From Bacteriovorax stolpii (lineage in GTDB: Bacteria > Bdellovibrionota > UBA1018): a stretch of 64,000 bases of DNA. The stretch lies in NCBI GenBank assembly GCA_945860415.1, contig CAMAQA010000006.1, positions 959 through 64,958 of the forward strand. The letters are read 5' to 3'. The notes under the pieces are model-generated. The model did no database searches and had not been told where the DNA came from. It saw only the letters and a program-made list of their open reading frames with translations. The stretch's first letter is position 1. Every line of letters starts with the position of its first letter. Of the stretch, positions 8,602 through 59,656 are shown one piece after another. The position numbers and the translations under genes are program-made.

Positions 8602-8609
8602 GCCGTTGC

Positions 8610-9322: not shown

Positions 9323-9342
9323 GTCCTCACCCTAGTGGATCC

Positions 9343-41808: not shown

Positions 41809-43308
41809 ATGAATGTCGGTCATGGAAACCAGGGGAGTGGTGGGTCCTTGCCTCCATGGGACATGGGGGCCTTTCTTGGACAGGAGCAGCCGCCCGCGTA
41901 CCAACCCGGCTCTCGGCAAAGCGCGAAAATTCCTCCGCATAGCCTCGAGGCCGAGCGCTCGGTTCTGGGTGCCGTCCTTCTCAAGAACGAAGCCATCTAT
42001 CAGGTGATCGAAGTTGGCGTCGAGGCGCGCGATTTCTACCATTCAGCCCATCAGAAGATTTTTGAAGTCGTGCTGGCGCTCTCGCACCGGAATGAGCCGG
42101 TGGATCTTCTCACGCTGACGAACGGCCTCAAGGACCGCCAATGGTACGAGGCCGTCGGCGGCGCCTCGGCGCTCACCACCCTGCTCGAGGAGACCTTTGC
42201 CGTCTCCAATATCGCGCATTATGCGCAAATCATTCGCTCGAAGTCCCAGCTGCGTCGAATGATCGATACCTGCACGGATATCGTCGAGGAATCCTACGGT
42301 CCGGTCGAGGACATGGAAGCCTTCATGGACGACGCTGAAAAGCGCGTCTTCGGGGTCTCGGATACCAAGAGCAACAAGACCTTTTCGACCATGACGGAGC
42401 TTCTCGTTGGCGCGATGACTCGGATCGAGGAGCTCGCGAACCAGAAGCAGGAAGTCACTGGTGTCTCGACGGGCTTCAAGGATTTCGACCGGCTCACCAC
42501 CGGCCTTCATCCCGGTCAGATTGTCGTCCTCGCGGCCCGACCCGGAATGGGTAAGACCTCCTGGTTCCTCTCGGCGCTTCAGCATGCCGCGGTCAAGGAC
42601 AGGAAGGTGGTGGCGCTGTTCTCGCTTGAAATGTCGAAGGAAGAACTCTGCTTCAAGATGATTTCCGGACTGGCCCGGATCAACGCGCGAAACCTGAAGC
42701 AGGGCAGGCTGCTGGATCGTGACTGGCAGCGACTGGCCCAGGCCGCCGACGATCTTTCGAAATGCCGTATCGCCATTGATGACTCCGGCTCGCTCACGGT
42801 CATGGATGTGCGTGCTCGTTGTCGCCGCCTGCTGGCGATGGAAAAGCGTCTCGACCTGATCGTCATCGACTATCTGCAGCTGATGAAGGGCTCGAAATCA
42901 TCGTCGAAGGAGTCGAACCGCGAACAGGAAATTTCGGGCATCAGCCGCGGACTGAAGGAGCTCGCCAAGGAGCTCGGCGTTCCAATCATTGTCTTGTCGC
43001 AGCTGAATCGTGGCGTGGAGAACCGCCAGGACAAGCGTCCGATGCTCTCCGACCTTCGCGAATCGGGAGCCATCGAGCAGGACGCCGACATGGTCGTCTT
43101 CATTCACCGCGAAGACTACTACAACAAGGAAACCGAGCAGAAGGGCATTGCCGAGATCATCATCGCCAAGAATCGCGCGGGTGAAACGGATACCGTCAAG
43201 CTGGGCTGGGTCGGAGAATTCACGCTTTTCGTGAATCTTGCCGAAGAGTCTTCAGGTATGCCCGTTTATCCGCAAAGGACCGTGGAAAAAGGCGGACCAA
43301 GCTTCTGA
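41809..43308 (+). CDS. dnaB: Replicative DNA helicase DnaB
   Basis: PPHSLEAERSVLGAVLL (N-terminal domain), Walker A GARPGMGKTS, H4 RecA-like motifs; 499 aa. Confidence 0.95.
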   Translation: MNVGHGNQGSGGSLPPWDMGAFLGQEQPPAYQPGSRQSAKIPPHSLEAERSVLGAVLLKNEAIYQVIEVGVEARDFYHSAHQKIFEVVLALSHRNEPVDLLTLTNGLKDRQWYEAVGGASALTTLLEETFAVSNIAHYAQIIRSKSQLRRMIDTCTDIVEESYGPVEDMEAFMDDAEKRVFGVSDTKSNKTFSTMTELLVGAMTRIEELANQKQEVTGVSTGFKDFDRLTTGLHPGQIVVLAARPGMGKTSWFLSALQHAAVKDRKVVALFSLEMSKEELCFKMISGLARINARNLKQGRLLDRDWQRLAQAADDLSKCRIAIDDSGSLTVMDVRARCRRLLAMEKRLDLIVIDYLQLMKGSKSSSKESNREQEISGISRGLKELAKELGVPIIVLSQLNRGVENRQDKRPMLSDLRESGAIEQDADMVVFIHREDYYNKETEQKGIAEIIIAKNRAGETDTVKLGWVGEFTLFVNLAEESSGMPVYPQRTVEKGGPSF

Positions 43309-43389
43309 TCTAAAAGGGATTTTCCCGTTTTGTGAAGGGGCTTAAAATAGTTGACTAGTTAAGACCATTATTGGAGGGTCTGGCCGCTT

Positions 43390-46300
43390 ATGGATCTGAG
43401 CGCCGCCAACAGTCGCTTTTTCCGCCGGTTTGCGTGGATGCGTCCCCGCGCAGGCTTCCGTGCGCTCCTGGTTGTAGCGACCTCGTCGCTAGGGCTCAGC
43501 GCCTGTTCCATGGGGCTTTTTTCGGACGGCAAGGACGCTTCCGTCCTGGCTCAAAAGCCCTATCGCCCCGACAATTCACTCTGCGCGAACATCGACATCC
43601 GCTCGAGCGACGTGAGTGTTCCGCAATTTCGTGAACTCCTCGCATGCTTGAATTCCAATGGGTCTCTTTCCGAGATCCAGAAGCTCACCGATCTGATGAG
43701 TGACGAGGACCTGCTGCCGCTCGTGCGAGTTGGCAACGAGCAGTTCTTCAAGAACCCCGTCTACCTTTACCAGTTCGAGAAGACGTTTGCCCAATGGGCG
43801 GCCCAAGGTCTTCTTGCTGAAGATCTCGACCAGATCGGCGGACTGATTCGAAATGATGCGTGGATCCGAAGTGTCCTGGCGCTGATGGCAAAGGCCGACA
43901 CGAGGATCTACAGCGCACTCGAAATCATCGCGCGGGATCTGGATGCAGAAAAGCTGTCGCGCAGTTTCGAGGCACTGGTTGCCACGATTGAATCACCGGC
44001 ATTCAAGAGCCTCCAGGACCGCCTGCGCGTTCCCGGCCAGTCTCCACTGACCCTCGACGAGATGGCCGCCGCGATCATGGCTTACATTCGGGCACAGCGT
44101 GCTCCGGGAAGGGTGGACGTCGATCGTCGAGTGCTGCGCGCCATTGCCGACGGCTCTCTCTTCATGGTGCTGGATGACTTTTCGCTCAGCCTCTCTCCTG
44201 CAGGAGATCTTCGAGAAAGCGTGGCCAGGTTTTCTGCACTGTCAAACCAGCTGAGCGCGCGTGAGTCGCGGATCCTTGGAGTGGGGCCGCGCCGTGATGC
44301 CGAGCGTTTCCGTGATCTCCTGGGCCTGGTCAATGGCATGCATGCTCCGATCGCCTGCCTGAAGGGCACGCAAGTCGTTCCGAACGGAGTGATGTTCGTG
44401 CTCCGCGAGCTTTCCAGCCGATCGACGAAAGACGCGGATCACTTCCTGCGACGGGAGAATTTGCTCAACCTTTCGCTCCTGAATTCGATCTGTGAATTTC
44501 CGGATGCGCTATCGAAGCATTACTCCGCTCTCCAGTCGCTGTCGTCGACCGACACGCTCTTTACCGCAGTAGAATTTGCAAAATCCTTTTACCGGAACGG
44601 CTCGGCGGAACTTCTGGTCGACGCTCTCGGCGGAGAGGGCACCGGCGCGGGAGTGCATTCCTCGCTGCCGTCGCCGATGATCGAGCTGATGCCGATTCTC
44701 TCGGAGATGACGAGCCGCGGAGCAATGGAGGATCTCTACCTGCTGGTTTCCTCGATTCGGCAGGAGGATCGCGCCAAGTGGCAGCAGTTCTTTTCTTTCC
44801 TGGTCGAGAGCCGGCCCGAGCTGGGGGGAGCGTCGATCTACGACGTGCTTTACGATACGGTCATCCGAGCGGATGAAGGCGTGATTGCCGATCTGATGCA
44901 GGGCTTCAGCCAGTTCATGTCGCAACGGGACGATATTTTCGCCCCGGCCCTGCGAAGCATGCGCCGGGTGCTGCTCATGAACAATGTCCATCCGATCCAG
45001 GACGTGATCGTGGGCATGCTCAGGAGTCCGGAGCAGAATCGCGACTTCTTCGAGGCGATCTTCAAGACAGCCCGCAGGCACCCGGAGGAATTTGAAGGTG
45101 CCATTCGGCTCGTCGGAGAGATGACCCGCTCCGAGGATGGTCGGCTGAAGGACGTCATTGGCGCGACCGTTCGCGTCTTCTCCAAGTTTGCCGCCCAGGG
45201 CGAAGCTGCGGGCCGGGTGGAGAATCGCCAAGTCCCGGCGTTTGATCCGGCACTTTTGCGTGCGCATCACTGGAGCCGACAGGATCTGGTGGCCGTGGTT
45301 CCACAGCTCCTGCCGGACTGGAAAGGTTGCAGCGGACTTTCTCCCACCGTCAGGCTGGATCAGTATGAAAATCCCGCGCATGCCGAATCTCTGGACAACT
45401 ACCTGCAATGCCTGGATTCGGATGGAAAACACTCGGATATCGTCAGCGTCTTCCAGTACCTGCGAGGCGAAAAAACCTCGAATGGAAAGCCGCTGCTCCA
45501 TCACTGGCTGGACCAGGTTCGGTCAGTCGACCTGAGCCCGACGGCGATCCAACAGCTCATCCGAAGCTTCTTCAACCTGTATGACGAAGGAACACTCTTC
45601 CGCGGGGTGGATCTCCTTCCGTGGTGGCTCAGCTATGACTTCGCAGGCGGTCGCGGTTCGGCTCCGTCAACGCTCCTTTCGCCACTCATCGACGTGATTG
45701 GTGGCGTGGTTCGCAAGGCAGGAGATTCGCTCGTCCGGTTCCAGAAGTTCGGAGGAGAACTCGTCACCGGTGATGCCGTGCCTGGAGCGCTGGATTTCGT
45801 GAACAGCGTCACCAAGACGCTGCCTGCTGCAACGCCTTTCACCGACACGGTGGAATTTCCGGTCAAGCCCTTCCAGGCTCCGCTCTGGCAGTATGAGTGC
45901 CTGGCTCGTCCTGCCGACCAGGCGATGCGCGCGGATCAGCTCGTGCGCGATTACGGCCGGGCCATTTCAGCGTGGCAGGTCAACGCTTCAGGTCGTCCTC
46001 GCTATGGCTGGGGAAAAAGGGAGCTCCGCGACGAGCTGGCTTCCGTGGCACAGAAGTTTTCGGACCCGTCCCAGGGGCCGGTGCTGGCGAAGCTCGTCGA
46101 CTTCCTTCGGATGATGTCGCTTGGAGCGGGCGAGCGCCCGACCCAGGGGCGGCTCCACCACTGGAGCGAGCTCCGAGATTGGCTGGCCCTTCGTGCGACT
46201 GACTGGCACCTGATTCCGTATTTCTATCCGGGCGAGGAGAATCCGCGCCTCAAGATGGCAAGCACGCTCGACCTTTTCGAGATGCTCGTGATCAACGCGG

Positions 46301-47664
46301 ACTTCAACTTCATGCTGCCAGAAAACTATGCGCTGAAGTTTCTCGGACTCGTGGGCAGGGCCTGGGGTGACGAGCCCAGGAGCCTCTGGCCGGCGGATAT
46401 CCAGCAGATGTATTCGCGCGGAGGCCGGCCACAGACCCTTCGAGAAGCCTTCGAAGAAATCAAGAGCACCCAGGGATTGGCGGAAAGCATGCTGGGCTTT
46501 CCGGATCTTCCGGATTGTCCGCGAGGTCGAACCGGCCAGCGCGGCATCTCACTGATACCGCTCGACGTGAAGGCGCGTGTCTTCAACCTCAGTCAGATCG
46601 TGTCGATCATCGAGCGGAATCTTCCCGATTCGCAGGGGCCTTATCGGGGCGGCCTGAAGATTCTCCGCGACATCCTCTACCAGCTTTGGTCGAGCACTCC
46701 CGCGAGCGACCGAGGAACAAGCGATGGATGGAAGAACAATCTGTCCATCGGGCCGAAACTCGCGAGGCTCGGAGCATTCCGCCAGGTTTCGCGCGGGGTG
46801 CGCCTGGCCGTGCTTTCTGAAAATCAAGGGCCGCGCGAGGGCGACCGAGCCTTGGATTCCGCCATCCAGGGTTTGATCGCGGGCTCGATGCAGCCTGCCG
46901 CAGCGTCCGCGGCAAATGCCGTTTTCCGGAACGATCCGGGAAATCGGTTCTTTTTTTCACTCTTTGATTTCGGCTACGACCTGCTTTCGCGCCCCCAGGG
47001 ACAGGCACAGCTTCGCGAAGCGCTGCTTTACGGAGTTGCCGCGATGAGGTCGCCGGTCCTTGCCGATGGAATCGTGCACAATGCGTCGATGATCTTCTCA
47101 AGCCATCGGCCCGAGGTGCTACAGGTTCTGCCGGTTGCCGGCGATCTTCTGGTCTCCGCAGATGTTTCCTCGACGATACGGTCTTTCGAGTCGTGGCAGC
47201 CCCAGTCGCAGGAGGACCTCGATTCTCGACGCGATTTCGATGAGATCGTGCAGAAAATCCTGCGGACCAGGGTCGATGGAAAGGCGCTCAGCGTCGATGC
47301 CATCCGAATGCTCTCGGTTTTCTCGACAATCGACATGAAAGCTCCGTGGGAGGAGTTCCTTCGTCGGAAGCGCCTGCTCGAGTCGAACCCCGATTACGCA
47401 GGGCTGGGAGCATCCGAGCTCGTGGATCGGGCTTTTGAATTCCTCACCGAGAAGGATCCGAGAACGGCCCAGGCTGCTCGGGAGCTCCGTCAATATGTCG
47501 GCAGCCAGCTCTCGGCGGGTCAGTTCCATGAGTACCTGCTTTGGATTGAGCGAGATCCTGACGGCGTGCGACGGTTTCTTGCCGCTATCGGCCGGGCATC
47601 CGGCAATGGCGATCTCAAGGATCTGCTGCGCCTGGCGCGTCGAGCCCTTCCGGATCCTCGCTGA
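43390..47664 (+). CDS. Giant lipoprotein (1424 aa), mostly alpha-helical, no recognisable domain
   Basis: Lipobox LGLSACS after a basic N-terminus. One continuous ORF of 4.3 kb with high-GC third positions, ending 33 nt before moxR. Confidence 0.6.
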   Translation: MDLSAANSRFFRRFAWMRPRAGFRALLVVATSSLGLSACSMGLFSDGKDASVLAQKPYRPDNSLCANIDIRSSDVSVPQFRELLACLNSNGSLSEIQKLTDLMSDEDLLPLVRVGNEQFFKNPVYLYQFEKTFAQWAAQGLLAEDLDQIGGLIRNDAWIRSVLALMAKADTRIYSALEIIARDLDAEKLSRSFEALVATIESPAFKSLQDRLRVPGQSPLTLDEMAAAIMAYIRAQRAPGRVDVDRRVLRAIADGSLFMVLDDFSLSLSPAGDLRESVARFSALSNQLSARESRILGVGPRRDAERFRDLLGLVNGMHAPIACLKGTQVVPNGVMFVLRELSSRSTKDADHFLRRENLLNLSLLNSICEFPDALSKHYSALQSLSSTDTLFTAVEFAKSFYRNGSAELLVDALGGEGTGAGVHSSLPSPMIELMPILSEMTSRGAMEDLYLLVSSIRQEDRAKWQQFFSFLVESRPELGGASIYDVLYDTVIRADEGVIADLMQGFSQFMSQRDDIFAPALRSMRRVLLMNNVHPIQDVIVGMLRSPEQNRDFFEAIFKTARRHPEEFEGAIRLVGEMTRSEDGRLKDVIGATVRVFSKFAAQGEAAGRVENRQVPAFDPALLRAHHWSRQDLVAVVPQLLPDWKGCSGLSPTVRLDQYENPAHAESLDNYLQCLDSDGKHSDIVSVFQYLRGEKTSNGKPLLHHWLDQVRSVDLSPTAIQQLIRSFFNLYDEGTLFRGVDLLPWWLSYDFAGGRGSAPSTLLSPLIDVIGGVVRKAGDSLVRFQKFGGELVTGDAVPGALDFVNSVTKTLPAATPFTDTVEFPVKPFQAPLWQYECLARPADQAMRADQLVRDYGRAISAWQVNASGRPRYGWGKRELRDELASVAQKFSDPSQGPVLAKLVDFLRMMSLGAGERPTQGRLHHWSELRDWLALRATDWHLIPYFYPGEENPRLKMASTLDLFEMLVINADFNFMLPENYALKFLGLVGRAWGDEPRSLWPADIQQMYSRGGRPQTLREAFEEIKSTQGLAESMLGFPDLPDCPRGRTGQRGISLIPLDVKARVFNLSQIVSIIERNLPDSQGPYRGGLKILRDILYQLWSSTPASDRGTSDGWKNNLSIGPKLARLGAFRQVSRGVRLAVLSENQGPREGDRALDSAIQGLIAGSMQPAAASAANAVFRNDPGNRFFFSLFDFGYDLLSRPQGQAQLREALLYGVAAMRSPVLADGIVHNASMIFSSHRPEVLQVLPVAGDLLVSADVSSTIRSFESWQPQSQEDLDSRRDFDEIVQKILRTRVDGKALSVDAIRMLSVFSTIDMKAPWEEFLRRKRLLESNPDYAGLGASELVDRAFEFLTEKDPRTAQAARELRQYVGSQLSAGQFHEYLLWIERDPDGVRRFLAAIGRASGNGDLKDLLRLARRALPDPR

Positions 47665-47697
47665 GTTGCTTGACGGCGGTCCCGCCGGAGCCGGAAG

Positions 47698-48705
47698 ATG
47701 GGATTTATGTCCCAGATTCCAACTGATGTCCGCAGCCTCACGGAAGAAATCCGCCAACGCCGCCAGTTCGTCGATGAGCTCCTCGCGGAGACATCGAAGG
47801 TTGTCGTAGGACAACGGGTGCTTCTCGAACGACTCCTGCTCGCTCTTCTTTGCGACGGCCATGTCCTCCTTGAAGGACTTCCCGGCCTCGCGAAGACACT
47901 GACCATCAAGACGCTCGCTGATGTCATCCACGCGCAGTTTCAGCGAATCCAGTTCACGCCTGATCTCCTGCCTGCCGACCTGATCGGCACGATGATCTTC
48001 AACCCGAAAACCGGCGATTTCACGCCGAAGAAGGGCCCGATCTTCACTCAGCTCGTGCTGGCCGATGAAATCAACCGTGCTCCTGCCAAGGTGCAGAGCG
48101 CTTTGCTCGAGGCGATGGGCGAGCACCAGGTGACCATCGGTGAAACGACCTATAAGATGGCCGATCCGTTCATCGTTCTCGCTACGCAGAACCCGATCGA
48201 GCAGGAAGGCACCTATCCGTTGCCGGAAGCCCAGCTTGACCGTTTCCTCTTCAAGGTGAAGGTCGGTTATCCGAACATCTCCGAAGAGAAGAACATCCTG
48301 AACCGGATGAGCGGCGTCGATGCTCCGAAGGCCGCCAAGGTCTGCAGGCCCGAGCAGATCCTGCAGGCCCGAGAAGTGGCCTCGCGGATCTACATGGACG
48401 AGAAGATCAAGGACTACATCCTGGGCATCGTGTTTGCGAGCCGGTTTCCGGAACGCTCCGGACTGCCCCAGCTCAAGTCGATGGTCCAGGTCGGCGCCTC
48501 GCCGCGAGCGACGATTGCGCTGGCCAGGGCGGCACGCGCGCATGCGTTCATCGAACATCGTGGCTTTGTCACTCCCGAAGATGTGAAGGCGATTGCCTAC
48601 GACGTGCTCCGGCACCGCATCCTCGTGACCTTCGAAGCGGAGGCCGACGGAGTTTCGAGCGAGCAGATCATCCAGAAGATCCTCGAACGTGTTGAGGTGC
48701 CGTGA
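47698..48705 (+). CDS. moxR: MoxR-family AAA+ ATPase
   Basis: GHVLLEGLPGLAKT (Walker A), VLADEINRAPAKVQSALLEAM (Walker B / sensor 1), 335 aa. Confidence 0.9.
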   Translation: MGFMSQIPTDVRSLTEEIRQRRQFVDELLAETSKVVVGQRVLLERLLLALLCDGHVLLEGLPGLAKTLTIKTLADVIHAQFQRIQFTPDLLPADLIGTMIFNPKTGDFTPKKGPIFTQLVLADEINRAPAKVQSALLEAMGEHQVTIGETTYKMADPFIVLATQNPIEQEGTYPLPEAQLDRFLFKVKVGYPNISEEKNILNRMSGVDAPKAAKVCRPEQILQAREVASRIYMDEKIKDYILGIVFASRFPERSGLPQLKSMVQVGASPRATIALARAARAHAFIEHRGFVTPEDVKAIAYDVLRHRILVTFEAEADGVSSEQIIQKILERVEVP

Positions 48706-48721
48706 GGCACGCGGAGGAGCC

Positions 48722-49600
48722 ATGCTGGCGAGCGACCAGATCCGGAAGATCCGGGCCATCGAATTCTCGACGAGGCGCCTGCTCGACGACCTGATGAGCG
48801 GCGGCTTTCGCAGCTCGTTCAAGGGCCAGGGCGTGCAGTTTTCGGAGCACCGGGTGTATGTTCCCGGCGATGACATCCGGCACATCGACTGGAAGGTGAG
48901 CGCGCGCACGCGCGAGCCGCTCGTGAAAAAGTTCGAGGAGGAGCGAGAGCTCTCGGTCCTTCTGGTGGTCGATGCTTCGGCAAGCCTCGCATTCGGCAGC
49001 CGCGAGAAGCTCAAATCGGAGGCTGCTGCCGAGGTCGCGGGAATGCTCGCCTATGCGGCGGCAATGTCGGGCGACAAGACCGGGATGATTCTTTTTTCAG
49101 AGCAGGTCGAAAAGGTGCTGCCCCTGAAGAAGGGCAAGAACCACGTCTCGCGGATCCTCCGCGAGCTCTTCGAACATCGGCCTCGAGGTAGGAAAACCTG
49201 CCTGGCCGACGCGCTCGAGATGGCCGGAAGAGTCATGAAGCACAAGGGCATCGTGATCGTCGTGAGTGATTTCATCGATGAGGAGTACGACATCTCTCTT
49301 CGACGGCTCGCGCGCAGGCATGATGTCGTGGCCATCCATGTGTCGGATCGCCTCGAGTCCGGAATGCCGAAATCAGGGTTCCTGAAGGTGGTCGATCCGG
49401 AGGGCGGGGGCACCCAGGTGGTTGATCCGGGGTCCTACATTTTCCAGCGCTGGCTCAAGGATTTTCACGAGTCGCACCGGACCGACACGGAATCAGCGTG
49501 GAAGGCTGGAAAGGTGGAGTCGGTTCGAATTGATACGCTCCAGGACCCGGCCGACCTGCTCGTCAAGTTCTTCAATGCCCGCGCGAGGAGACGTAGATGA
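48722..49600 (+). CDS. DUF58 protein (VWA-like, MoxR partner)
   Basis: EFSTRRLLDDLMSGGFRSSFKGQGVQFSEHRVYVPGDDIRHIDWKVSAR matches the DUF58 pattern. Confidence 0.85.
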   Translation: MLASDQIRKIRAIEFSTRRLLDDLMSGGFRSSFKGQGVQFSEHRVYVPGDDIRHIDWKVSARTREPLVKKFEEERELSVLLVVDASASLAFGSREKLKSEAAAEVAGMLAYAAAMSGDKTGMILFSEQVEKVLPLKKGKNHVSRILRELFEHRPRGRKTCLADALEMAGRVMKHKGIVIVVSDFIDEEYDISLRRLARRHDVVAIHVSDRLESGMPKSGFLKVVDPEGGGTQVVDPGSYIFQRWLKDFHESHRTDTESAWKAGKVESVRIDTLQDPADLLVKFFNARARRRR

Positions 49601-50574
49601 AGATGTTGTTCGCCCTCGCACTGTTTTTCTCAGCTGCCGGCGCCGCAACTGTCGCTTGGTCCGCGTCAGATGCTGCACCCGTGTTTCTTGCGGAGCGATA
49701 CTATAGTGCGCCGCAGTCGCAGAAGGTTGACCCGCCCATTCGCGTGGGTGACATCCTGCGATTCAGATGGATCGGAGAACAAAAGCCACCCACCAGTGCC
49801 GTGGAGATCGCTCCTGCCGAGGAGGGCAGATCGCTCTCGGAGCTGGGATGGGAGGTCTATTCGCATCCCAAGGATGATGCCACGTCGGCGTTCTCGGTGA
49901 TTCCGATCCGGCCGGGAGAAGTGGAGCTGCCTGCGCTGGCTGTTCGCGATGCGGAGAAGCGCGTCCTGGGCGTCACCAGGCCCGTCAAAATGAGTGTTGC
50001 TCCGGCAGCATCGGCAGAAGAACTCTCGAAGAAGGCTCCGGACTTTCTTCCTCCGGTGGCGATGCGCCTGCCCTGGTCGTGGATCATCGCCCTGCTGGCG
50101 ATCGGAGTGATACTTGCCGGAGTGGTCGTTGCGGTCCTCTGGAGAACGAGCCGAAAACTTCGCAAGCGTCCCCCCTTGAAGGCTTCAGAGCCGTCGCGTG
50201 CACGCCTGCCTGAAGATGAAGAGGCCCTGCGCCTGCTCGAGATGCTGGAACAGCAGCGTCTCTGGGCCGAACAGCGGTTCAAGCCGCATTATTTCGGAGT
50301 TTCGGAAGCCCTGAAAAAGTACATCGAAAGGCGTTTTGGCTTCGATGCCGCTGAATCGACTACTCGCGAAATGCTGCTCGGCCTCAGCGAAAGAGGTATC
50401 GACCGCGAACGCCTTGGCGGCCTTTCATCTCTCTTCGAGAAGCTGGATCGAGTGAAATTCACCGACTTCGTTCCTGAGGAACAGGAGTGCTCCTGGATCC
50501 TGGAGGAGGCGAGGGGCTGGATCCGGGCCACGCGCCAGGCGGCACCCAAAACCGGAGGAGTGAATGCGGTTTGA
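49597..50574 (+). CDS. DUF4381-like membrane protein of the Bat operon
   Basis: Signal peptide, one internal TM helix (WIIALLAIGVILAGVVVAVLW), conserved position between DUF58 and BatA. Its ATG overlaps the DUF58 stop (ATGA). Confidence 0.5.
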   Translation: MKMLFALALFFSAAGAATVAWSASDAAPVFLAERYYSAPQSQKVDPPIRVGDILRFRWIGEQKPPTSAVEIAPAEEGRSLSELGWEVYSHPKDDATSAFSVIPIRPGEVELPALAVRDAEKRVLGVTRPVKMSVAPAASAEELSKKAPDFLPPVAMRLPWSWIIALLAIGVILAGVVVAVLWRTSRKLRKRPPLKASEPSRARLPEDEEALRLLEMLEQQRLWAEQRFKPHYFGVSEALKKYIERRFGFDAAESTTREMLLGLSERGIDRERLGGLSSLFEKLDRVKFTDFVPEEQECSWILEEARGWIRATRQAAPKTGGVNAV

Positions 50575-51547
50575 GTCCTGGCCATTCCTGCTGGCGCTGA
50601 TTCCGCTCTTCCTGCTTTTCAGGATCTGGGTTGCCCGCAATTCGCCGCCGAGCCTGGCTTTTCCGATTCCCGTTGCTGCCAAGGCCGGCGCGCGTGATCC
50701 GGTGCCCTATTCCGTGCTGCTTCGGCTCCTCGGAGTGGCGCTTCTGCTTCTGGCGCTTGCCCGTCCCCAGGCCAGCTTCACTCGCACCGATCGGTCGGTG
50801 GGGGGCATCGACATCATGATGGTGATGGACGTCTCGGCGAGCATGAACATCGAGGACCTGGCTGATCGTCCGCGGCTTGATGTCGCGAAGGAGACGATGG
50901 AGGCGTTCATCAAGGGGCGTGAGAATGATCGAATCGGTTTTCTGATCTTCTCGGGAGAGCCGCTGACGCTTGCGCCGCCGACACTCGATTATGGGCTGGT
51001 GCTCAAGGCCCTTCGAGATGCCAAGATCGGCATCCTCAAGGACGGAACGGGCATTGGTGATGGACTCTCACTGGCCATCAACCGGCTCCGGAATTCGACT
51101 GCCAAAAGTCGTGTGATCATCCTGCTGACGGATGGTGACAACAACGTAGGACAGGTGGACCCCGGAACTGCAGGCGAGCTGGCGGCAGGTTATGGAATCC
51201 GCGTGTACACCATTGCCATCGGTCGCGAAGGCCGGGTTCGGCTTCCGATCCGCACCCAGGGAGTGTTTGGCAATCCAGTCACCACCTATCAGTACTTCGA
51301 TAACGCCTTGAACCCCGAGCTGCTGAAGAAGATCGCCGAGCTGACCCGGGGCAAGTTCTATCGAGTCACCGAAGAAAGCTCGCTCGGATCCGTGTTCAAG
51401 GAAATCGACGGCCTTGAAAAGACGGTGATCCAGTCCAAGAGCGAGGTGCGCCATGAAGAGCGCTTCTCGCTGCCGCTCATCCTGGGAATCGGAGTGCTCC
51501 TGGTGGAGCTCCTGCTCTCTCGCCTGCTCTGGAGGTTTGCCCTGTGA
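50564..51547 (+). CDS. batA: VWA-domain membrane protein BatA
   Basis: Two N-terminal TM helices, then a VWA MIDAS motif DIMMVMDVSASM ... ILLTDGDNN. Confidence 0.8.
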   Translation: MRFESWPFLLALIPLFLLFRIWVARNSPPSLAFPIPVAAKAGARDPVPYSVLLRLLGVALLLLALARPQASFTRTDRSVGGIDIMMVMDVSASMNIEDLADRPRLDVAKETMEAFIKGRENDRIGFLIFSGEPLTLAPPTLDYGLVLKALRDAKIGILKDGTGIGDGLSLAINRLRNSTAKSRVIILLTDGDNNVGQVDPGTAGELAAGYGIRVYTIAIGREGRVRLPIRTQGVFGNPVTTYQYFDNALNPELLKKIAELTRGKFYRVTEESSLGSVFKEIDGLEKTVIQSKSEVRHEERFSLPLILGIGVLLVELLLSRLLWRFAL

Positions 51548-53337
51548 CCTTCGGCGCGCCGAAAAATCTGCTGCTGCTTCTGCTTCCCGCGCTGCTCTTT
51601 CTGGTCCTGCGCTGGGACCTCGCGCGTCAGACCCTGCTATTTGGATCCTGGATCGCACCGAAGTTCTGGTCGAGGCTGGTTCCGGGCTGGCGCCCACGGG
51701 CCCGGCTCCACAAGGCGACTCTCTTTTGCCTCGGCCTCGCCTTCGTGGTTCTTGCCATGGCTCGACCTCAATGGGGCCATCGCGAGGAGACCGTGCGTGC
51801 GAGCGGAGTGGACGTCATGATCGTGCTCGACGTGTCGCGGAGCATGGATGTGGAAGACGTGGTTCCGTCACGGATGAAGAAGGCCCGACACTGGATTCGG
51901 AATTTCATCGACCAGATGGCCGGAAACCGAGTAGGGGTCGTGGCATTTGCGTCGAGCAGTTACGTCGCCTGTCCGCTGACGACGGATCTGGATTACGTCG
52001 TCGAAAGCGTCGACATTCTCGGGCCCTCGTCCGTCCTGAACCAGGGCACCGACATCGGTCTTGGGCTCACGACGGCACTTGCGGCGCTCGATCGAGGAGC
52101 GGAGTCTCCGGACTCCGAGGCCGAGCGCCAGGGTCTGGCTTCGAAGGCCGTCGTCCTCATCAGTGACGGCGAGGACCACGAGGCGGCTTTTGCGGAAGCG
52201 GCATCCCAGCTGGCAAAAAAGGGAGTGAAGCTCTTCGTCCTTGGAGTGGGTACCGAAAAGGGCGGGCCCATTCCGATTCGCGATGAGATGGGTAAGCTCG
52301 AGGGTTACAAACGTCAGGGCGCCGAGCCCGTGGTGAGTCGGTTCGATTCGACGAGCCTCGAGCGTATCGCGGCCGATGGCTCAGGAAAGTACTGGAACAT
52401 GAGCCAGTCGGAGTCCGAGGTTCGCGAAGTCCTGGGGGCGCTGGGCGCTTTGGACCGAAAGCAGTTCCAGGAACGCAAGACTCGTGTGCCGATCAGCCGC
52501 TATCAGTGGCCGCTGGCGATTGCAGTCGTGCTGTTCGTGCTCGAGCTGGCCCTGCCTCTGACCACGATCGCAGGCGCGAAGAGCTACTCCGCTCTCGTTT
52601 TTCTGCTGGTAGTGCTGCTTTCAGGGCGCGCCGATGCAGCGACACCGATTGAAAGCTACGTCAAGAACCGTGAAGGACTGAAGCTTTTCTCGAAGGAAGA
52701 GGTACAGGAAGCAGAGAAGAAGTTCGGAGAAGCGCAGTCCGCGGATCCATCGAGCGTGGAGCCGCAATTCAACCTCGGAGTCGTTCAGCTCAAGAAGGGC
52801 GACGGCCGGTCCGCGATCCACAGCTTTGAAAAGGCCGCCCGGGGAGCGGGAATGGAGGGTAATGCAGCACTTTCCGCGCGTTCGCTCTACAACCTGGGTT
52901 CTGCCTATGAGTTGGACAAGCAGGAGGGAAGTGCGCTCAGGAGCTTTGCCGCCGCAGTGAGGATGGCAGAGCTGGCCAAAGACGAGGCGCTGGCAACTGA
53001 GGCGAGAAAACGAATCCAGAAAATTCAGGAACAGCAACAGCAGCAACAGAAGCAGAAGGGCCAGCAGTCGCAAGATCAAAAGGGTGGCCAGAGCGGCGAG
53101 CAGCAACAGCAGTCTGAAGGCGGCTCCCAGGACAAGAACGAGCAGAAGCAGCCACAAAATGCCCGCCAGTATGAAGACCCCTCGGTGAGCCGCCGCCGGG
53201 AGTTCAAATCCGACAAGATGAGTCCGGAAGATTCCGAACGGGTCATGTCCGAGCTCTCTGCTCGCGAAAAGCAGCTTCAGGCCAAGCTCAAGAAACAGCG
53301 TGGAGCACGACAGGCGAACAATGATAAGGACTGGTGA
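51544..53337 (+). CDS. batB: VWA plus TPR protein (BatB/BatC fusion) with a Q/K/E-rich tail
   Basis: GTG start overlapping the batA stop (GTGA). MIDAS DVMIVLDVSRSM ... VLISDGEDH, C-terminal TPR repeats, and a poly-Q tract QEQQQQQQKQKGQQSQDQ. Confidence 0.8.
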   Translation: MTFGAPKNLLLLLLPALLFLVLRWDLARQTLLFGSWIAPKFWSRLVPGWRPRARLHKATLFCLGLAFVVLAMARPQWGHREETVRASGVDVMIVLDVSRSMDVEDVVPSRMKKARHWIRNFIDQMAGNRVGVVAFASSSYVACPLTTDLDYVVESVDILGPSSVLNQGTDIGLGLTTALAALDRGAESPDSEAERQGLASKAVVLISDGEDHEAAFAEAASQLAKKGVKLFVLGVGTEKGGPIPIRDEMGKLEGYKRQGAEPVVSRFDSTSLERIAADGSGKYWNMSQSESEVREVLGALGALDRKQFQERKTRVPISRYQWPLAIAVVLFVLELALPLTTIAGAKSYSALVFLLVVLLSGRADAATPIESYVKNREGLKLFSKEEVQEAEKKFGEAQSADPSSVEPQFNLGVVQLKKGDGRSAIHSFEKAARGAGMEGNAALSARSLYNLGSAYELDKQEGSALRSFAAAVRMAELAKDEALATEARKRIQKIQEQQQQQQKQKGQQSQDQKGGQSGEQQQQSEGGSQDKNEQKQPQNARQYEDPSVSRRREFKSDKMSPEDSERVMSELSAREKQLQAKLKKQRGARQANNDKDW

Positions 53338-53340: not shown

Positions 53341-55269
53341 GTGAAGACTCTCCGGACGCTCCTGCATCAGTCGGTGTTCATCGCGGTTCTGGCTTCGGCA
53401 GCGATCGCCGGCGACCCGGTTTTTCAGGCTTCCGTGGATCGCGCCACGATCGGGCAGGACGAGTCCGTCGCATTGAAGTTCCGCATCGTGACCGATGGCA
53501 TGGGGGGATCCGAGGAGCCCGAGTTTCAGGCGCCCGACTTCGACCTCGTCAACCAGTACTCGAGCGTGTTCGTCGAGTCGTATTACGAGAACGGCAAGTT
53601 TGGAGCACGAAACAACAGGCAATTCACGAAAGTCCTTCGTCCAAACCGGACCGGCGAGCTGACGATTTCGGGCATCCAGCTCAAGGCCGGTGGCCGCACA
53701 TTCTCTCATCCGCCGATTCGCGTGGTTGTCTCCGCAGGAGGTCGAGGAACTCCGCCTCCGCAGGGTTACGGCGGCAGTGGCGTGGGTCTTCGCGGCGCGG
53801 GCAAGCGCCCGCGCGGAGCGACGATTCCCTTTTTCATTCGCGCCGAGGTGGACCATGCCCGAGTGGTCAAGGGCCAGCAGATTGTCGTCAGCTACTTCCT
53901 TTACCAGCGGGTACGCGCCCACAACATCCAGGTCGACAAGTATCCGGTGCTCGATGGATTCCTTCGCGAAGATCTTGAACTTCCGATCCTCGGTCAGCGA
54001 TTGACTGATCGAGAATCGGTGGTCCTGGACGGAGTGGCGTATGAGCGCGTGCTCCTCGCGCGCTATGCCGCCTATCCACTGAAGGAGGGCAGGCTGTCCA
54101 TCGACTCGATGGCGATCAAGGGCAATTATTTTGCACCGCCCGGCGGAATTGCGGACTCTCAGGATCCGATCGAAGATGCACTGCAGAACTTCATGCAGCA
54201 GTTACAGCCGCGCGTGTGGAGCCATCGCTCCGATCCGGTGCCTGTTGAGGTACAGCCCCTGCCGCTCGATGGTCGTCCGGCAGCCTTTGCAGGTGGGGTT
54301 GGTGACTTCGAAATCACATCCACGGTCGACAAGACCACGGTCCGGGTGAATGAACCGGTCACGCTGGTACTCAAGATCGAAGGACGCGGCAACACGGCTG
54401 CCATCGGGCAACCGCCGGTGAAGTGGCCTGCTGATCTGGAGGTATACGAGACGAAGTCCAGGGTGGCCGGCTCTCCAGGCGGAGTTTCGGCAAAGATCTT
54501 CGAGATCCTGCTGATCCCGAGACGGGGGGGCAGCTTCACGCTTCCGGAGCAGGAACTCGCCTACTACTCGCCGCAGGAGGGCGCCTACCGCACGAAAAAG
54601 GCTCCCGCGCTCGACATTGTCGTGGAGGGACAGGGGGACGGTTTTGTTCCAAAGTCGAGTTCCGCCACGTCGTCGACGACATCATCCATCACGCCGGGCG
54701 GTGATGGTCTCCTCCTTCCGGAACAATGGACGGGTCGGCGTTCAATGTCATCTCCTCTCGCACAGTGGATCGTCCAGGCGCTGGTTCTTCTCAGTGGCCT
54801 CCTTCTCGCTGGAGTCGGAGCGCACAAGATCTGGCGTCGTCGACACCTGCTCGGTTCGGTTCGCTCGGCGCTGACCCGCCAACGACGCGGATCGGCGAGC
54901 ACGCCCTGGACAGCCTTGCGGAGCCAGTGTGCGCGGGCCGATCGGTTTTCCGCAGGCGAGCTCGTGGCTTTTTACCAGTCGATCGCGCAGGGATTGTATT
55001 CTGAGCTGGAATCACGCCTGTCTCTGCCGGCACGGGCATGGTCTCGTGCTGAGATTCGACGCCAGATCGAAGAGGCATCGCATGACGGCAGTTGGATGCC
55101 CGATTCGGTGCTTTGGCAGAGGATTGAGAACATCCTCGAATATTCCGAAGCACTTCAGTTCTCAGGCGCGCTCCAGGAGCAGGAGGCGCGCAGCCGGATG
55201 GAGACCACCTTGAATGAAGTGGAGCGGATCCTGGCCTTGCTTCAGAAGGAACCGGAAGGAGGGTCATGA
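53341..55269 (+). CDS. batD: BatD-like (oxygen-tolerance) protein
   Basis: Signal peptide, large periplasmic domain, C-terminal TM helix (LVLLSGLLLAGVGAHKIW) and cytoplasmic tail; 642 aa. GTG start. Confidence 0.65.
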   Translation: MKTLRTLLHQSVFIAVLASAAIAGDPVFQASVDRATIGQDESVALKFRIVTDGMGGSEEPEFQAPDFDLVNQYSSVFVESYYENGKFGARNNRQFTKVLRPNRTGELTISGIQLKAGGRTFSHPPIRVVVSAGGRGTPPPQGYGGSGVGLRGAGKRPRGATIPFFIRAEVDHARVVKGQQIVVSYFLYQRVRAHNIQVDKYPVLDGFLREDLELPILGQRLTDRESVVLDGVAYERVLLARYAAYPLKEGRLSIDSMAIKGNYFAPPGGIADSQDPIEDALQNFMQQLQPRVWSHRSDPVPVEVQPLPLDGRPAAFAGGVGDFEITSTVDKTTVRVNEPVTLVLKIEGRGNTAAIGQPPVKWPADLEVYETKSRVAGSPGGVSAKIFEILLIPRRGGSFTLPEQELAYYSPQEGAYRTKKAPALDIVVEGQGDGFVPKSSSATSSTTSSITPGGDGLLLPEQWTGRRSMSSPLAQWIVQALVLLSGLLLAGVGAHKIWRRRHLLGSVRSALTRQRRGSASTPWTALRSQCARADRFSAGELVAFYQSIAQGLYSELESRLSLPARAWSRAEIRRQIEEASHDGSWMPDSVLWQRIENILEYSEALQFSGALQEQEARSRMETTLNEVERILALLQKEPEGGS

Positions 55270-56561
55270 AAACCGGAAGCAGGATTGCCGTTGTCGGAAG
55301 TGGAATTGCCGGGATGTCGTGCGCCTATTTTCTGGGCCGCTCACATGAGGTCACGCTGTTCGAGAAGGACTCGAGAATCGGCGGGCACTCCAACACGATC
55401 ACGGTGAATGCTCCGCGCGGCCAGGCGATCTTCGATACGGGCTTCATGGTCTACAACGAGGTGACTTACCCTTGCCTGACTCGCTTGTTTGGTGAGCTCG
55501 AGGTTGCCACCCAGCCGACCGACATGTCCTTCAGCGTCCAGTATCGTCCTGCCCGACTCGAGTACTGCGGGTCAGGGTGGAACGAGCTCTTTGCCCAGAG
55601 GCGGAACCTCTTCAGCCCGCGCCATTGGCGAATGCTGCTGGCGATCGATCGATTCAACACCGAAGCGGTGAGGCACCTGCGCGATGCTGCGCTCGAGCGT
55701 CGAATCGAGGCGATGACTGTTCGCGAGTTCGTGGATCATCATCGGCTCGGCGAGGATTTTCTTGATCGCTTCCTGGTGCCGATGAGCTCGGCCGTGTGGA
55801 GCACTCCCCGCGACCGGATGCTGGAGTTTCCGGCCCTGACCTTGATCCGGTTCTTTCATAACCATGGTTTTCTGGGTCTGCACACGCAGCACCCCTGGCG
55901 AACGGTGACGGGCGGATCCCGCTCCTATGTGAGCAGGATCACCGCCGGGTTCGCCGACCGTATTCGGAGCGGAGACGCCGTGCTCAGGGTCGCGCGCTCG
56001 GATGAAGGAGTCACCCTTCGCACCGCCTCAGGCACTGAGTCGCGATTTGATGCGGTCGTGCTGGCCTGCCATGCTGACCAGTCTCTTTCACTTCTGGATT
56101 CGCCGACAGCCCGAGAGTCAGCACTTCTCGGCACTTTTCGGTACCAGCCCAATCCGACGGTCGTCCACACCGATACCTCGGTGCTTCCGCGAAGTCGCCG
56201 TGCCTGGTCCTCATGGAATTATCGCGTCGAGAAGGATGGGGCAGCATCGACGCATTACTGGATGAATCGGCTCCAGTCGCTGCCCGGCGAAGAGCAGGGA
56301 AGACACGAGTTCATCGTGAGCCTGAATGATCCCGGAAAAATCGATGAATCGAAGGTGCTTCAGCGCATTGGTTATGACCATCCGCTATTCAGCCTGGATG
56401 CAGTCCGCGCGCAGTCGGAGCTGCCTGGACTGAACCGCGAAGGGGCGAGCACTCGAACGTACTTTTGCGGCAGCTATTTTCGATACGGTTTCCACGAGGA
56501 TGCCCTGATGTCTTCCGTCGGGCTGTGCCGGCAGCTGCTGGGAGCGGACTTTTGGAACTGA
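55266..56561 (+). CDS. FAD/NAD(P)-binding oxidoreductase (amine-oxidase-like) of the DUF1365/CFA-synthase cassette
   Basis: Dinucleotide-binding IAVVGSGIAGMSCAYFL...LFEKDSRIGGH. GGAGG RBS. Its ATG overlaps the batD stop (ATGA). Confidence 0.8.
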   Translation: MKTGSRIAVVGSGIAGMSCAYFLGRSHEVTLFEKDSRIGGHSNTITVNAPRGQAIFDTGFMVYNEVTYPCLTRLFGELEVATQPTDMSFSVQYRPARLEYCGSGWNELFAQRRNLFSPRHWRMLLAIDRFNTEAVRHLRDAALERRIEAMTVREFVDHHRLGEDFLDRFLVPMSSAVWSTPRDRMLEFPALTLIRFFHNHGFLGLHTQHPWRTVTGGSRSYVSRITAGFADRIRSGDAVLRVARSDEGVTLRTASGTESRFDAVVLACHADQSLSLLDSPTARESALLGTFRYQPNPTVVHTDTSVLPRSRRAWSSWNYRVEKDGAASTHYWMNRLQSLPGEEQGRHEFIVSLNDPGKIDESKVLQRIGYDHPLFSLDAVRAQSELPGLNREGASTRTYFCGSYFRYGFHEDALMSSVGLCRQLLGADFWN

Positions 56562-57343
56562 AGCAGTCATCACTCTATGACTGCAGCATCCTGCATGTGC
56601 GGCTCTGGCCGAGACGCCACCGCCTGAAGTACCGATTCTTCTGGTTCGCGCTCGATCTCGACGAGGCCGCCAGTCTACCTCGAGCCGGAATTCTCGGAAC
56701 GGGACGATGGAGTCTTTATCGTTTCCTCGAGTCCGACCACCTGGACCTGCGAGGCAGGGCAATTCTCCCGGGAAGCCTCAAGCGCGAACTTCTGGCCCTC
56801 GTTCGGAATTCCGCAGTGGAGTGGGATGGATCTCGGGCGATCCTGCTCACTCAGGCCCGATTTCTTGGCTACGTTTTCAATCCGGTATCGTTCTATTTCA
56901 TGTGGAACTCTGATGGCACACGCGCCGCGGTGGTCGCAGAGGTCGGAAATACATTTGGAGAATTGAAACCCTACGTCCTGGGACCAGTGACCGACAACGG
57001 CGGAGACTGGTGCCTGCGGGTACCCAAGCACTTTTATGTCTCGCCCTTCACCGACCTCGAGACGGAATTTGAGTTTCGAGTCGAATGGCCGGCGGATCGA
57101 CTCCTGATCGATGTTGATGATTTCAAGGCAGGCGAAAAGATCCTGGTTTCTCGGATGGAGGGATCGCGAACCGCCTGTGCGACTGGTTCCTTGCTCTGGA
57201 GGACGCTTCGGTTTCCATTCGTCACCCTGCAGATCATTTTCCTCATCCATTGGCATGCGCTCTTGCTCTTTCTCAAGCGGGTGCCGTACTTTGCCAAAAA
57301 TGACAGGAAAGACCTTCAACGCGGGGTGATGAGGCCCCACTGA
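56552..57343 (+). CDS. DUF1365 family protein
   Basis: SSLYDCSILHVRLWPRRHRLKYRFFWFALDLDE matches the DUF1365 N-terminal pattern. No ATG is available, so the start is a TTG at 56552 or a GTG at 56525; either overlaps the upstream gene. Confidence 0.65.
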   Translation: MELKQSSLYDCSILHVRLWPRRHRLKYRFFWFALDLDEAASLPRAGILGTGRWSLYRFLESDHLDLRGRAILPGSLKRELLALVRNSAVEWDGSRAILLTQARFLGYVFNPVSFYFMWNSDGTRAAVVAEVGNTFGELKPYVLGPVTDNGGDWCLRVPKHFYVSPFTDLETEFEFRVEWPADRLLIDVDDFKAGEKILVSRMEGSRTACATGSLLWRTLRFPFVTLQIIFLIHWHALLLFLKRVPYFAKNDRKDLQRGVMRPH

Positions 57344-57344
57344 C

Positions 57345-58625: not shown

Positions 58626-59656
58626 GCTGGGTGGATGCTGCTCTCGAGAAGGATCTTCTTCCGGACTGGATGATCCGGCTCGGCATTCGCAGGCTATTGC
58701 GAGAGCGCCTTGTCGAGATCGATTCGGGAGAGGCCGAGAGGAATCGCCAGCGTTACAGCGAGTACGTTCGGATGCTCAAGAGCAGTCCTCTGGCAGTCCA
58801 CACGCGCGCGGCCAATGAGCAGCACTATGAGGTTCCGACCGAATTCTTCAGGTACTGTCTCGGGCCGCGAATGAAATACAGCTGCGCTCTCTATGACACA
58901 GGCAGCGAGACGCTGGCGGAAGCCGAAGAAAAGATGCTCGCCCTCACCTGTGAGCGCGCCCGTCTGAAGGATGGCCAGGACGTCCTGGAGCTGGGATGCG
59001 GCTGGGGCTCGCTGACTCTCTGGATGGCGGAAAAGTATCCGAACTCGCGGATCACCGCCGTTTCGAACTCGCGAACCCAGAAGCAGTGGATTGATTCGCA
59101 GCTTGAAAAACGCGGATGGAAGCATGTCCGGATCATCACCCGCGACATGAATGATTTCGAGGCCGATGCGTCGGCCTACGACCGTGTGGTGTCGGTCGAG
59201 ATGTTTGAGCACATGCGGAACTACGAGCTGCTGCTTGAAAAGATCTCTCGCTGGCTGCGTCCCGGAGGGCATCTTTTCGTGCACATCTTCGTCCATGCGC
59301 GATTTCCGTACCTGTTCGAGGCGAAGAGCGATTCTGATTGGATGTCGCGGTACTTTTTCACCGGGGGCCAGATGCCTTCCGATGATCTTTTGGGTCAGTT
59401 TCAGTCGCATCTCCGACTGACGGAGCAGTGGCGTGTCAATGGTCGCCACTACGAGCTCACGGCGGAGGACTGGCTTCGGAATATGGACAAAAACAGTCAG
59501 GAGATCGAGCCTCTTCTGGCCTCGGCCTACGGGTCTGGCCAAATGCGCAAGTGGCGCGTCTACTGGCGGGTGTTCTACATGGCCTGCGCCGAGCTCTGGG
59601 GTTTTGCAAAAGGCCAGGAGTGGTTCGTTTCGCACTACCTTTTTACGAAGCCTTAG
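58622..59656 (+). CDS. Cyclopropane-fatty-acyl-phospholipid synthase-family SAM methyltransferase (paralog 2)
   Basis: HYEVPTEFFRYCLGPRMKYSCALY...LELGCGWGSLTLWMAEKYPNSRITAVSNSRTQ... Its ATG overlaps the stop of paralog 1 (ATGA). Confidence 0.85.
   Translation: MSWVDAALEKDLLPDWMIRLGIRRLLRERLVEIDSGEAERNRQRYSEYVRMLKSSPLAVHTRAANEQHYEVPTEFFRYCLGPRMKYSCALYDTGSETLAEAEEKMLALTCERARLKDGQDVLELGCGWGSLTLWMAEKYPNSRITAVSNSRTQKQWIDSQLEKRGWKHVRIITRDMNDFEADASAYDRVVSVEMFEHMRNYELLLEKISRWLRPGGHLFVHIFVHARFPYLFEAKSDSDWMSRYFFTGGQMPSDDLLGQFQSHLRLTEQWRVNGRHYELTAEDWLRNMDKNSQEIEPLLASAYGSGQMRKWRVYWRVFYMACAELWGFAKGQEWFVSHYLFTKP

Follow-up and report, generated by a model that had tools for sequence, protein, structure and literature searches.

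Directly upstream of a Bat operon, the 64,000-nucleotide window that we analyzed (Bacteriovorax stolpii, contig CAMAQA010000006.1 of assembly GCA_945860415.1) carries a 4.3-kb gene for a giant lipoprotein at positions 43390 to 47664 of the forward strand. The product belongs to an unnamed protein family that is so far confined to Bdellovibrionota, and in most of the loci compared relatives of the gene stand in front of the same set of moxR, DUF58 and bat genes. Judged from the sequence, we suggest that the lipoprotein serves the Bat complex in the periplasm, as a scaffold or as an accessory subunit peculiar to this lineage, a tentative reading that we hold at close to, though somewhat below, even chances. 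Bat/MRP-type MoxR operons are widespread, being found in Bacteroidota, Spirochaetes, Francisella and many other bacteria, where they affect stress tolerance and virulence. The biochemical function of the Bat system and its physiological targets have been unclear for decades. The lipoprotein, having stayed beside the operon over a wide span of divergence within one phylum, is a concrete, testable candidate partner. What is new about this Bat/MRP MoxR system is its neighbor, a giant lipoprotein that is conserved and restricted to the phylum; the genes downstream make up an ordinary Bat operon. The cultured members of Bdellovibrionota are predators.

Gene order provides the main evidence. We compared 25 distinct loci, taken from close and distant family members with enough downstream sequence, in which the neighbors of the window gene were located by tblastn. 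The block of moxR, DUF58, a gene for a protein with one transmembrane (TM) segment, batA, batB and batD was found directly 3' of the lipoprotein gene and on the same strand in 22 of these loci, with gaps between the lipoprotein gene and moxR that range from -20 to 124 nt. This adjacency is kept from 90% down to about 23% identity of the lipoprotein to that of the window. In the most distant loci identity to the window proteins is still about 80% for MoxR and about 65% for BatA, and falls to 33-43% for BatD, to about 35% for the TM protein and to about 25% for the lipoprotein. The lipoprotein thus diverges faster even than the extracytoplasmic Bat parts, which are the fastest-evolving Bat proteins. 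The upstream side behaves differently. In the window the genes 5' of the lipoprotein gene are rpsF, rpsR, a DUF2232 gene, rplI and dnaB, and dnaB adjoins the lipoprotein gene there and in near relatives. A relative with 39% identity (L012) has a B12-binding radical-SAM/DUF4080 gene (8296 to 9906) between dnaB and the lipoprotein gene, hence the dnaB junction is not fixed. Furthermore, dnaB lies 7.8 kb away in L018 and was not detected upstream in L014 to L016. The lipoprotein gene has an opposite-strand gene as its upstream neighbor in L030 and L035 (for an M28 peptidase) and in L032 (without assignment), and in L029 an opposite-strand phasin-like gene is followed by a small same-strand ORF (open reading frame) and then by the lipoprotein gene. 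Retention of the moxR junction while the upstream junction decays points to a functional link. The linkage of the lipoprotein gene with moxR is strong, not absolute. A connection with the MoxR/VWA Bat genes had been proposed in a sequence-only reading of this stretch, and the co-occurrence of homologs across the loci bears it out.

The ORF list and the translation gave one unbroken ORF of 1424 codons for the lipoprotein, and its codon-position GC (0.70 at third positions) is like that of the adjoining genes. The 1424-aa precursor would yield a mature protein of about 1385 aa with an isoelectric point of 5.8. Its N-terminus, MDLSAANSRFFRRFAWMRPRAGFRALLVVATSSLGLSA-C39-SMG, consists of a charged n-region with Arg residues, a hydrophobic core and the lipobox L-S-A-C; signal peptide (residues 1-38) and lipobox together span 43390 to 43506, with Cys39 encoded at 43504 to 43506 and Ser at the +2 position. 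Residues 25-44 are the sole strongly hydrophobic segment of the whole protein (Kyte-Doolittle hydropathy above 1.6). The positive n-region and hydrophobic h-region expected of a lipoprotein processed by the Sec pathway and signal peptidase II (Sec/SPII) are both present, and L-S-A-C39 agrees with the lipobox pattern [LVI][ASTVI][GAS]-C. The lipobox Cys is aligned in 99 out of 99 family members with a complete N-terminus. Among these, Gly or Ala precedes it in all but two members, which have Ser, and the +2 residue is Ser in 86% and Asp in none. A conserved twin-arginine motif was not found in the family: RR occurs in 13 of 97 signal peptides and a loosely Tat-like (twin-arginine translocation) arrangement in 3 of 97, and the RR of the window signal peptide lies 12 residues ahead of the h-region. 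The lipoprotein is thus a predicted Sec/SPII substrate, lipid-anchored and of about 155 kDa.

The subcellular placement of the Bat proteins could be predicted in a similar way. Searches with Pfam and NCBIfam identified the genes that follow the lipoprotein gene, all on the forward strand, as those for MoxR, a DUF58 protein, the protein with signal peptide and one TM segment, BatA, a BatB-TPR fusion and BatD. The moxR gene (47707 to 48705) encodes an MRP-type AAA+ ATPase (Pfam AAA_3, 1.2e-64, and AAA_lid_2) in which hydropathy analysis found no TM segment and no signal peptide. The DUF58/VWA-like protein (48689 to 49600, start codon uncertain; Pfam DUF58, 8.8e-68) likewise has no hydrophobic segment and no export signal. 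Both proteins are therefore predicted to be cytoplasmic. The product of the next gene (49597 to 50574) is the membrane protein that has, besides its signal peptide, a single TM segment (residues 153-186). It gave a weak DUF4381 match and is conserved in every bat locus, and its N-terminal domain is predicted to be periplasmic. BatA (50564 to 51547; Pfam VWA, NCBIfam BatA) has, by hydropathy, two N-terminal TM segments, the VWA domain and a C-terminal TM segment. The loop between the first two TM segments is positively charged, and by the positive-inside rule this places the VWA domain in the periplasm. Indeed, the VWFA domain of the Borrelia homologue BB0173 was shown to be periplasmic by experiment (PMC5700661). 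The gene at 51544 to 53337 encodes a fusion of BatB (VWA) with a BatC-like TPR part (Pfam VWA and TPR; NCBIfam BatB and BatC). The conserved core ends with batD (53341 to 55269; Pfam BatD, 1.4e-26), whose product carries a signal peptide and, at its C-terminus, a TM segment. The BatB-TPR fusion protein is 597 aa long with hydrophobic segments between its halves, and the same fusion is present in all related loci.

With the VWA domain of BatA in the periplasm and signal peptides on BatD and the TM protein, it is these proteins, and not the ATPase, that would have their compartment in common with the lipoprotein. We therefore propose that the lipoprotein gene and the Bat genes are two neighboring units, possibly joined by read-through, that would serve one envelope function. 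The lipoprotein would sit in the periplasm, and Ser at +2 together with the lack of Asp suggests sorting to the outer membrane, if the E. coli rule, which may not hold here, applies. There, as an elongated helical protein, it could serve the VWA/MIDAS domains of BatA and BatB, BatD and the N-domain of the TM protein as a scaffold or as a partner for docking, and the cytoplasmic MoxR-DUF58 ATPase module might drive or regulate this periplasmic complex from inside. The lipoprotein would then be an accessory subunit and not a substrate unfolded by MoxR. As far as the sequence allows a judgment, a scaffold or an envelope structure that has escaped recognition is plausible. We regard as unlikely a more far-reaching version, namely that the protein is a true structural subunit of a Bdellovibrionota-specific trans-envelope Bat machine, a 155-kDa disulfide-braced helical arm anchored in the outer membrane and docking the MIDAS domains of BatA and BatB as well as BatD. 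If it were true, a mechanical coupling would run from the cytoplasmic MoxR-DUF58 ATPase through the inner membrane and on to the outer membrane, and the lipoprotein would be the first identifiable periplasmic target of the Bat system.

The sequence-only reading had described the protein as a largely helical orphan with a lipobox and no recognizable motif, encoded by a single 4.3-kb ORF. All of this agrees with our results except the word orphan. Word-indexed homologue searches of 5.8 billion proteins, also when run with profiles of 8 and 121 sequences, returned the same 7 relatives only (48-90% identity). When a profile built from residues 40-1230 was searched exhaustively with HMMER, 278 cluster representatives (clusters at 50% identity) came up at E<=1e-3, of which 230 reached E<=1e-10 and 162 reached E<=1e-30. 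The word-indexed search alone would thus have left a false orphan. Most of the 278 representatives are full-length (1300-1650 aa) and align end to end. Members with a named source are all annotated as hypothetical proteins and come from Bdellovibrionota, Bdellovibrionales, Oligoflexia or "uncultured Bacteriovorax" metagenome-assembled genomes (MAGs); the nearest relative of the window protein, with 89-90% identity, is from a Bdellovibrionia MAG. The window protein had no match in Pfam, NCBIfam, PADLOC or the PDB sequences, and this included the Bat, MoxR, DUF58, VWA and TPR models of Pfam and NCBIfam. A comparison of 33 diverse members with Pfam gave no consistent match and no TPR, PPR or HEAT model; scattered single matches (EAD1 in 2 of 33, E 0.005) were judged to be noise. 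In the literature on Bdellovibrio and MoxR, or on MoxR/DUF58 and lipoproteins, we found nothing on this family. It is a large, undescribed family that is part of no curated family tested, and with at least 278 clusters at 50% identity and no entry in Pfam or NCBIfam it merits definition.

Although mean column identity in an alignment of 121 full-length members is only 13%, conservation is concentrated at defined positions, with peaks at residues 61-120 and 931-1140. N-terminally complete members share the lipobox followed by the signature GCSxGxFxG..D....YR..N..C..DLS..L.V..FR.L..C(L/F)N.NG. All nine cysteines of the window protein (C39, C65, C86, C323, C368, C647, C674, C837 and C1043) are among the most conserved positions, and four conserved Cys pairs together with the signal peptide would fit folding in the oxidizing periplasm. 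One of the two best-conserved regions holds an N-terminal Cys-pair helical module (residues 64-154, 43579 to 43851; C65 and C86) with the signature C..DLS..L.V..FR.L..C(L/F)N.NG. A second such module was found at residues 646-748 (45325 to 45633; C647 and C674). Aligned with hhalign, the two match with a probability of 93.8% (E 1.8e-7), C65 with C647 and C86 with C674 in register, from which we conclude that the lipoprotein contains an internally duplicated Cys-pair helical module. The most conserved core comprises residues 931-1140 (46180 to 46809), as defined by the conservation profile and the motif alignment of the 121 members, and carries the motifs YPGE..PR.K/R....LD..E...NADF, AWGDEP..WP and NLP....GG.K.LRD.L.

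The protein is predicted to be all-alpha. AlphaFold2 was run on two halves with only 7-8 close relatives in the alignment, not with the deep family, and the halves reached predicted local distance difference test (pLDDT) scores of 45.1 and 37.6. DSSP assigned helices almost exclusively in these low-confidence models, in line with the helical character noted earlier. A Foldseek search of the PDB with the N-terminal model gave TM-scores below 0.1 and nothing usable, and at pLDDT values of 38-45 no fold could be assigned. PDB sequence searches with shallow and deep family profiles recovered no real homologue, only designed repeat proteins (designed PPR, E 1.5e-7; designed helical repeats, 5e-5). 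Such idealized sequences are prone to compositional matches. The matches may hint at solenoid-like repeats, which would fit a scaffold of that shape, but we do not read them as homology.

The junction between the lipoprotein gene and moxR bears on whether the two are expressed together. Between the end of the lipoprotein stop codon (47664) and the first moxR ATG (47698) lies the gap of 33 nt from which the sequence-only reading had argued. Since L002 and L009 lack this ATG, it is the one at 47707 that is the conserved moxR start, and the gap is 42 nt; the shorter distance holds for the first ATG only. The remark that the gap has no terminator stands: terminator-like sites were found neither in the window scan nor in L014 and L018. 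The implied lack of a promoter could not be upheld. A putative sigma70-like moxR promoter lies at 47670 to 47699, with the -35 element TTGACG (47670 to 47675), an 18-nt spacer and the -10 element GAAGAT (47694 to 47699), which ends 7 nt before the ATG at 47707. In an intergenic alignment of four relatives TATGTCCCA and GCTTGAC are invariant. A stricter promoter scan of the window missed this element because GAAGAT matches the consensus at 3 of 6 positions only; the same scan independently found the moxR promoter in L014 (14065 to 14092) and L018 (14240 to 14268).

A recurring layout was observed across 21 loci: TTGACN or TTGTCA is followed, after 16-18 nt, by a -10-like hexamer whose second base is A and whose sixth is T, and the moxR ATG comes 6-9 nt later. 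The hexamers seen are TATGAT, TATAGT, TAGAAT, GATTAT, GAGAAT, GAAAAT, GAAGAT, GAAACT and GAGAGT. The layout TTGACN-N16-18-nAnnnT precedes moxR in 17 of the 21 loci compared with 0.99% of 6700 control ATGs from the same loci. When close relatives are collapsed, 12 of 16 lineage groups have it (binomial p 1.5e-21). In L035 it reads TTGACG-17-GAAGAT-8-ATG, with the -35 element overlapping the lipoprotein stop codon. In most loci there is no Shine-Dalgarno sequence before the moxR ATG. With about 7 nt between the -10 element and the ATG, transcription is predicted to start at the start codon, giving a leaderless or near-leaderless moxR mRNA, and conservation of the layout implies that the Bat operon would be expressed as a leaderless mRNA across the phylum. 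Sigma70-like elements before moxR were recorded in the window (47670 to 47709), L012 to L015, L017, L018, L021, L024, L026, L028, L032 and L035. A further observation at this junction concerns L002 and L009 (14255 to 14326; 48-49% identity): the lipoprotein ORF has no stop after its conserved ...RRALPDPR C-terminus and extends by another 23 codons, past the moxR promoter and into the first 20 nt of moxR itself.

The lipoprotein gene is preceded by a promoter-like and ribosome-binding-site region of its own (43351 to 43379), with TTGACT at 43351 to 43356, a 17-nt spacer and GAGGGT at 43374 to 43379. The latter overlaps a Shine-Dalgarno-like GGAGG run (43373 to 43377) that lies 10-12 nt before the ATG, and GAGGGT/GGAGG could be either a -10 element or a Shine-Dalgarno sequence. 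GTTGAC and TTATT.GAGGGT are invariant in four relatives with 48-81% protein identity, and distant relatives have recognizable promoters upstream of the lipoprotein gene as well. The most economical reading of these elements is that the lipoprotein gene and the Bat genes would form two adjacent transcription units. Since no terminator was found between them, read-through from the lipoprotein gene into moxR is possible. The moxR promoter is a case in point that short gaps alone are a risky basis for calling operons.

Several of these observations weigh against a periplasmic Bat subunit. The published descriptions that we consulted of the canonical Bat operons of Bacteroides, Leptospira and Borrelia include no such lipoprotein component. 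The conserved moxR promoter would mean that expression of the lipoprotein and of the Bat genes need not be coupled. The region from rpsF to the gene for type III glutamine synthetase (GSIII) is broadly syntenic in the phylum, and part of the adjacency of lipoprotein gene and moxR may consequently be inherited gene order. Two members that are 79% identical and represent one lineage (L023 and L033) have unrelated genes downstream and no moxR nearby, and no moxR is near L034, a member of a divergent subfamily without the AWGDEP motif that is located in a leuS/trypsin neighborhood. The sequence-only reading had named relatives without MoxR neighbors as a point that would speak against it; such relatives exist, as a minority. 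Finally, the near-invariant polar residues E836, D994, N1066 and R1093 would suit an active or ligand-binding site better than a passive scaffold. The genes after the moxR-less members (L023, 2758 to 5466; L033, 14274 to 15744; L034, 9148 to 12200) are uncharacterized; the one in L023 encodes a 902-aa protein with a Pro/Ser-rich N-terminal region and no Pfam match.

Some of these points are shared by the alternative that the lipoprotein is unrelated to Bat, a phylum-specific envelope protein whose adjacency to moxR is inherited order, perhaps stabilized by a bat promoter that overlaps its 3' end. In L002, L013, L021, L026, L030 and L035 the -35 or even the -10 element of moxR reaches into the stop codon or coding region of the lipoprotein gene. 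Separate promoters for the two genes, the synteny in many loci of the block that runs from rpsF-rpsR-DUF2232-rplI-dnaB to GSIII, and the members without moxR nearby would all be accounted for. Inherited order does not, however, readily explain why the moxR junction is kept when the dnaB junction of the same block has been repeatedly broken by insertions and inversions, or why the adjacency persists at about 23-25% identity, where neutral gene order usually decays. Moreover, the lipoprotein and the periplasmic Bat domains would share a compartment. On balance we consider an unrelated neighbor rather unlikely, though it deserves to be kept in view.

The sequence-only reading had suggested, besides a scaffold, another relation, in which the lipoprotein gene is the first cistron of a single transcript of roughly 19 kb (43390 to about 62800) and its product a client of the MoxR/DUF58/VWA chaperone, for export, folding or insertion. 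The genes are on the same strand with a gap of 33-42 nt that is free of terminator-like sites, and from moxR to ribF the genes overlap or follow one another closely, with terminator-like sites at background frequency only. The in-frame ATG at 47698 has GGAG (47687 to 47690) 7 nt ahead of it and could serve moxR translation on read-through transcripts. There is also a precedent in mycobacteria, where moxR1-DUF58-VWA is immediately preceded by ripAB and where the export of RipA through Tat is reported to require MoxR1 (PMC12067865, citing Bhuwan 2016). Against a single transcript stands the conserved promoter, which 17 of 21 loci have at a distance of 6-9 nt from the moxR ATG; most loci have no Shine-Dalgarno sequence there, and the ATG at 47698 is not conserved. 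The 19-kb unit is itself not a conserved entity, since the genes at 55266 to 59656 (the amine oxidase-DUF1365-cyclopropane-fatty-acid (CFA) synthase block) occur only in the window and some relatives and are missing in many others. Thus a first position in such a unit is doubtful, read-through notwithstanding. The client role is topologically awkward, because MoxR and DUF58 are cytoplasmic proteins without export signals and the lipoprotein, as a predicted Sec/SPII substrate without a Tat motif, would cross the membrane unfolded; a periplasmic partner is likelier than a MoxR client. We regard single transcript and client together as improbable. A Tat-dependent client of the RipA-MoxR1 type was rejected, since that mechanism needs cytoplasmic folding and a Tat signal and does not transfer to a family without a conserved twin-arginine motif and with loosely Tat-like signal peptides in only 3 of 97 members.

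A periplasmic enzyme, for instance an all-alpha toroid or solenoid active on glycans or lipids and linked to Bat, if at all, via substrate or regulation, seems to us more improbable still. It would explain the near-invariant E836, D961, D994, N1066 and R1093 in a family of such low overall identity. Within the 931-1140 core D994, P1001, N1066, R1093 and G1128 are near-invariant, E836 is so outside it, and the near-invariant polar residues thus lie within or near the core with its AWGDEP and YPGE..PR motifs. It is opposed by the lack of any catalytic family match in Pfam (33 diverse members), NCBIfam or the PDB sequences, and by one subfamily without AWGDEP that keeps the moxR neighborhood (for example P0139 in L029). 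An enzymatic activity would not exclude a link to Bat.

The proposed Bat partner can be compared with known systems. LpoA and the PrsT-type TPR lipoproteins are long helical-repeat envelope lipoproteins that span the periplasm. They resemble the window protein in predicted architecture only (lipid-anchored, all-alpha, periplasmic and possibly built from repeats), a picture with which the internal duplication and the matches to idealized PPR and helical-repeat proteins would agree; homology to LpoA or PrsT was not detected, and NCBIfam PrsT matched the TPR region of BatB instead. With respect to the Bat/MRP operons of Bacteroides, Riemerella, Leptospira, Borrelia and Francisella, the downstream set of the window is canonical (MoxR, DUF58, a small membrane protein, BatA, BatB, TPR and BatD), and moxR heads the operon as it does in Bat/MRP systems (PMC11834572). 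The window differs from these operons in the giant lipoprotein, which the descriptions consulted lack, and in the fusion of the TPR part to BatB; no gene for BatE (TPR/SH3) was seen at the Bat locus of the window. Since the Bat system has no established biochemical function, this comparison explains little about the mechanism. The ripA-ripB/moxR1 locus is alike in that a gene for a secreted envelope protein is located directly and conservatively upstream of a moxR-DUF58-VWA operon. RipA differs as an NlpC/P60 peptidase that is exported folded via Tat, whereas the window protein is about three times larger, is predicted to be an all-helical Sec lipoprotein, and has neither a peptidase domain nor a family-wide twin-arginine motif. 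In RavA-ViaA of E. coli a MoxR-class AAA+ ATPase with a VWA partner acts on dedicated membrane- or envelope-associated complexes (PMC3893208). RavA belongs to another MoxR subfamily, lacks DUF58, BatA, BatD and a lipoprotein, and its partners are cytoplasmic or inner-membrane enzymes. A MoxR-vWA-beta-propeller ternary conflict or anti-phage defense system was rejected for the window genes: the bpMoxR model scored 46 bits against 216 bits for AAA_3, a beta-propeller gene is absent, and PADLOC matched none of the seven proteins tested.

Long ORFs run antisense to the lipoprotein and moxR genes on the reverse strand, among them those at 47119 to 49014 and 44509 to 45504; one encodes 631 aa. As the sense proteins have strong family matches or hundreds of homologues, we consider these ORFs a by-product of coding sequence with 60% GC and not genes. 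An Rfam scan of 43000 to 48200 gave no match, hence no known riboswitch or small RNA is present in either intergenic region. After the dnaB stop (43309 to 43345) there is a short G+C hairpin, GGGA-TTTT-CCC, without a clear T-run; the corresponding hairpins CAAGG...CCTTG in L003 and GGGGA-ATCG-TCCCC in L001 differ, and their sequences cannot be aligned. This hairpin is below the threshold of the terminator scan and may act as a weak terminator between dnaB and the lipoprotein gene. Between batD and GSIII the window carries the cassette at 55266 to 59656, whose first gene overlaps the batD stop by 4 nt and which encodes an FAD amine-oxidase-like oxidoreductase, a DUF1365 protein and two CMAS-family CFA-synthase-like methyltransferases. 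It is absent from L003, L010, L012, L013, L015, L024, L029 and others, in which GSIII follows batD. The cassette is present in the window, L001, L002 and L009, and it may resemble lipid-modification clusters linked to oxidative stress.

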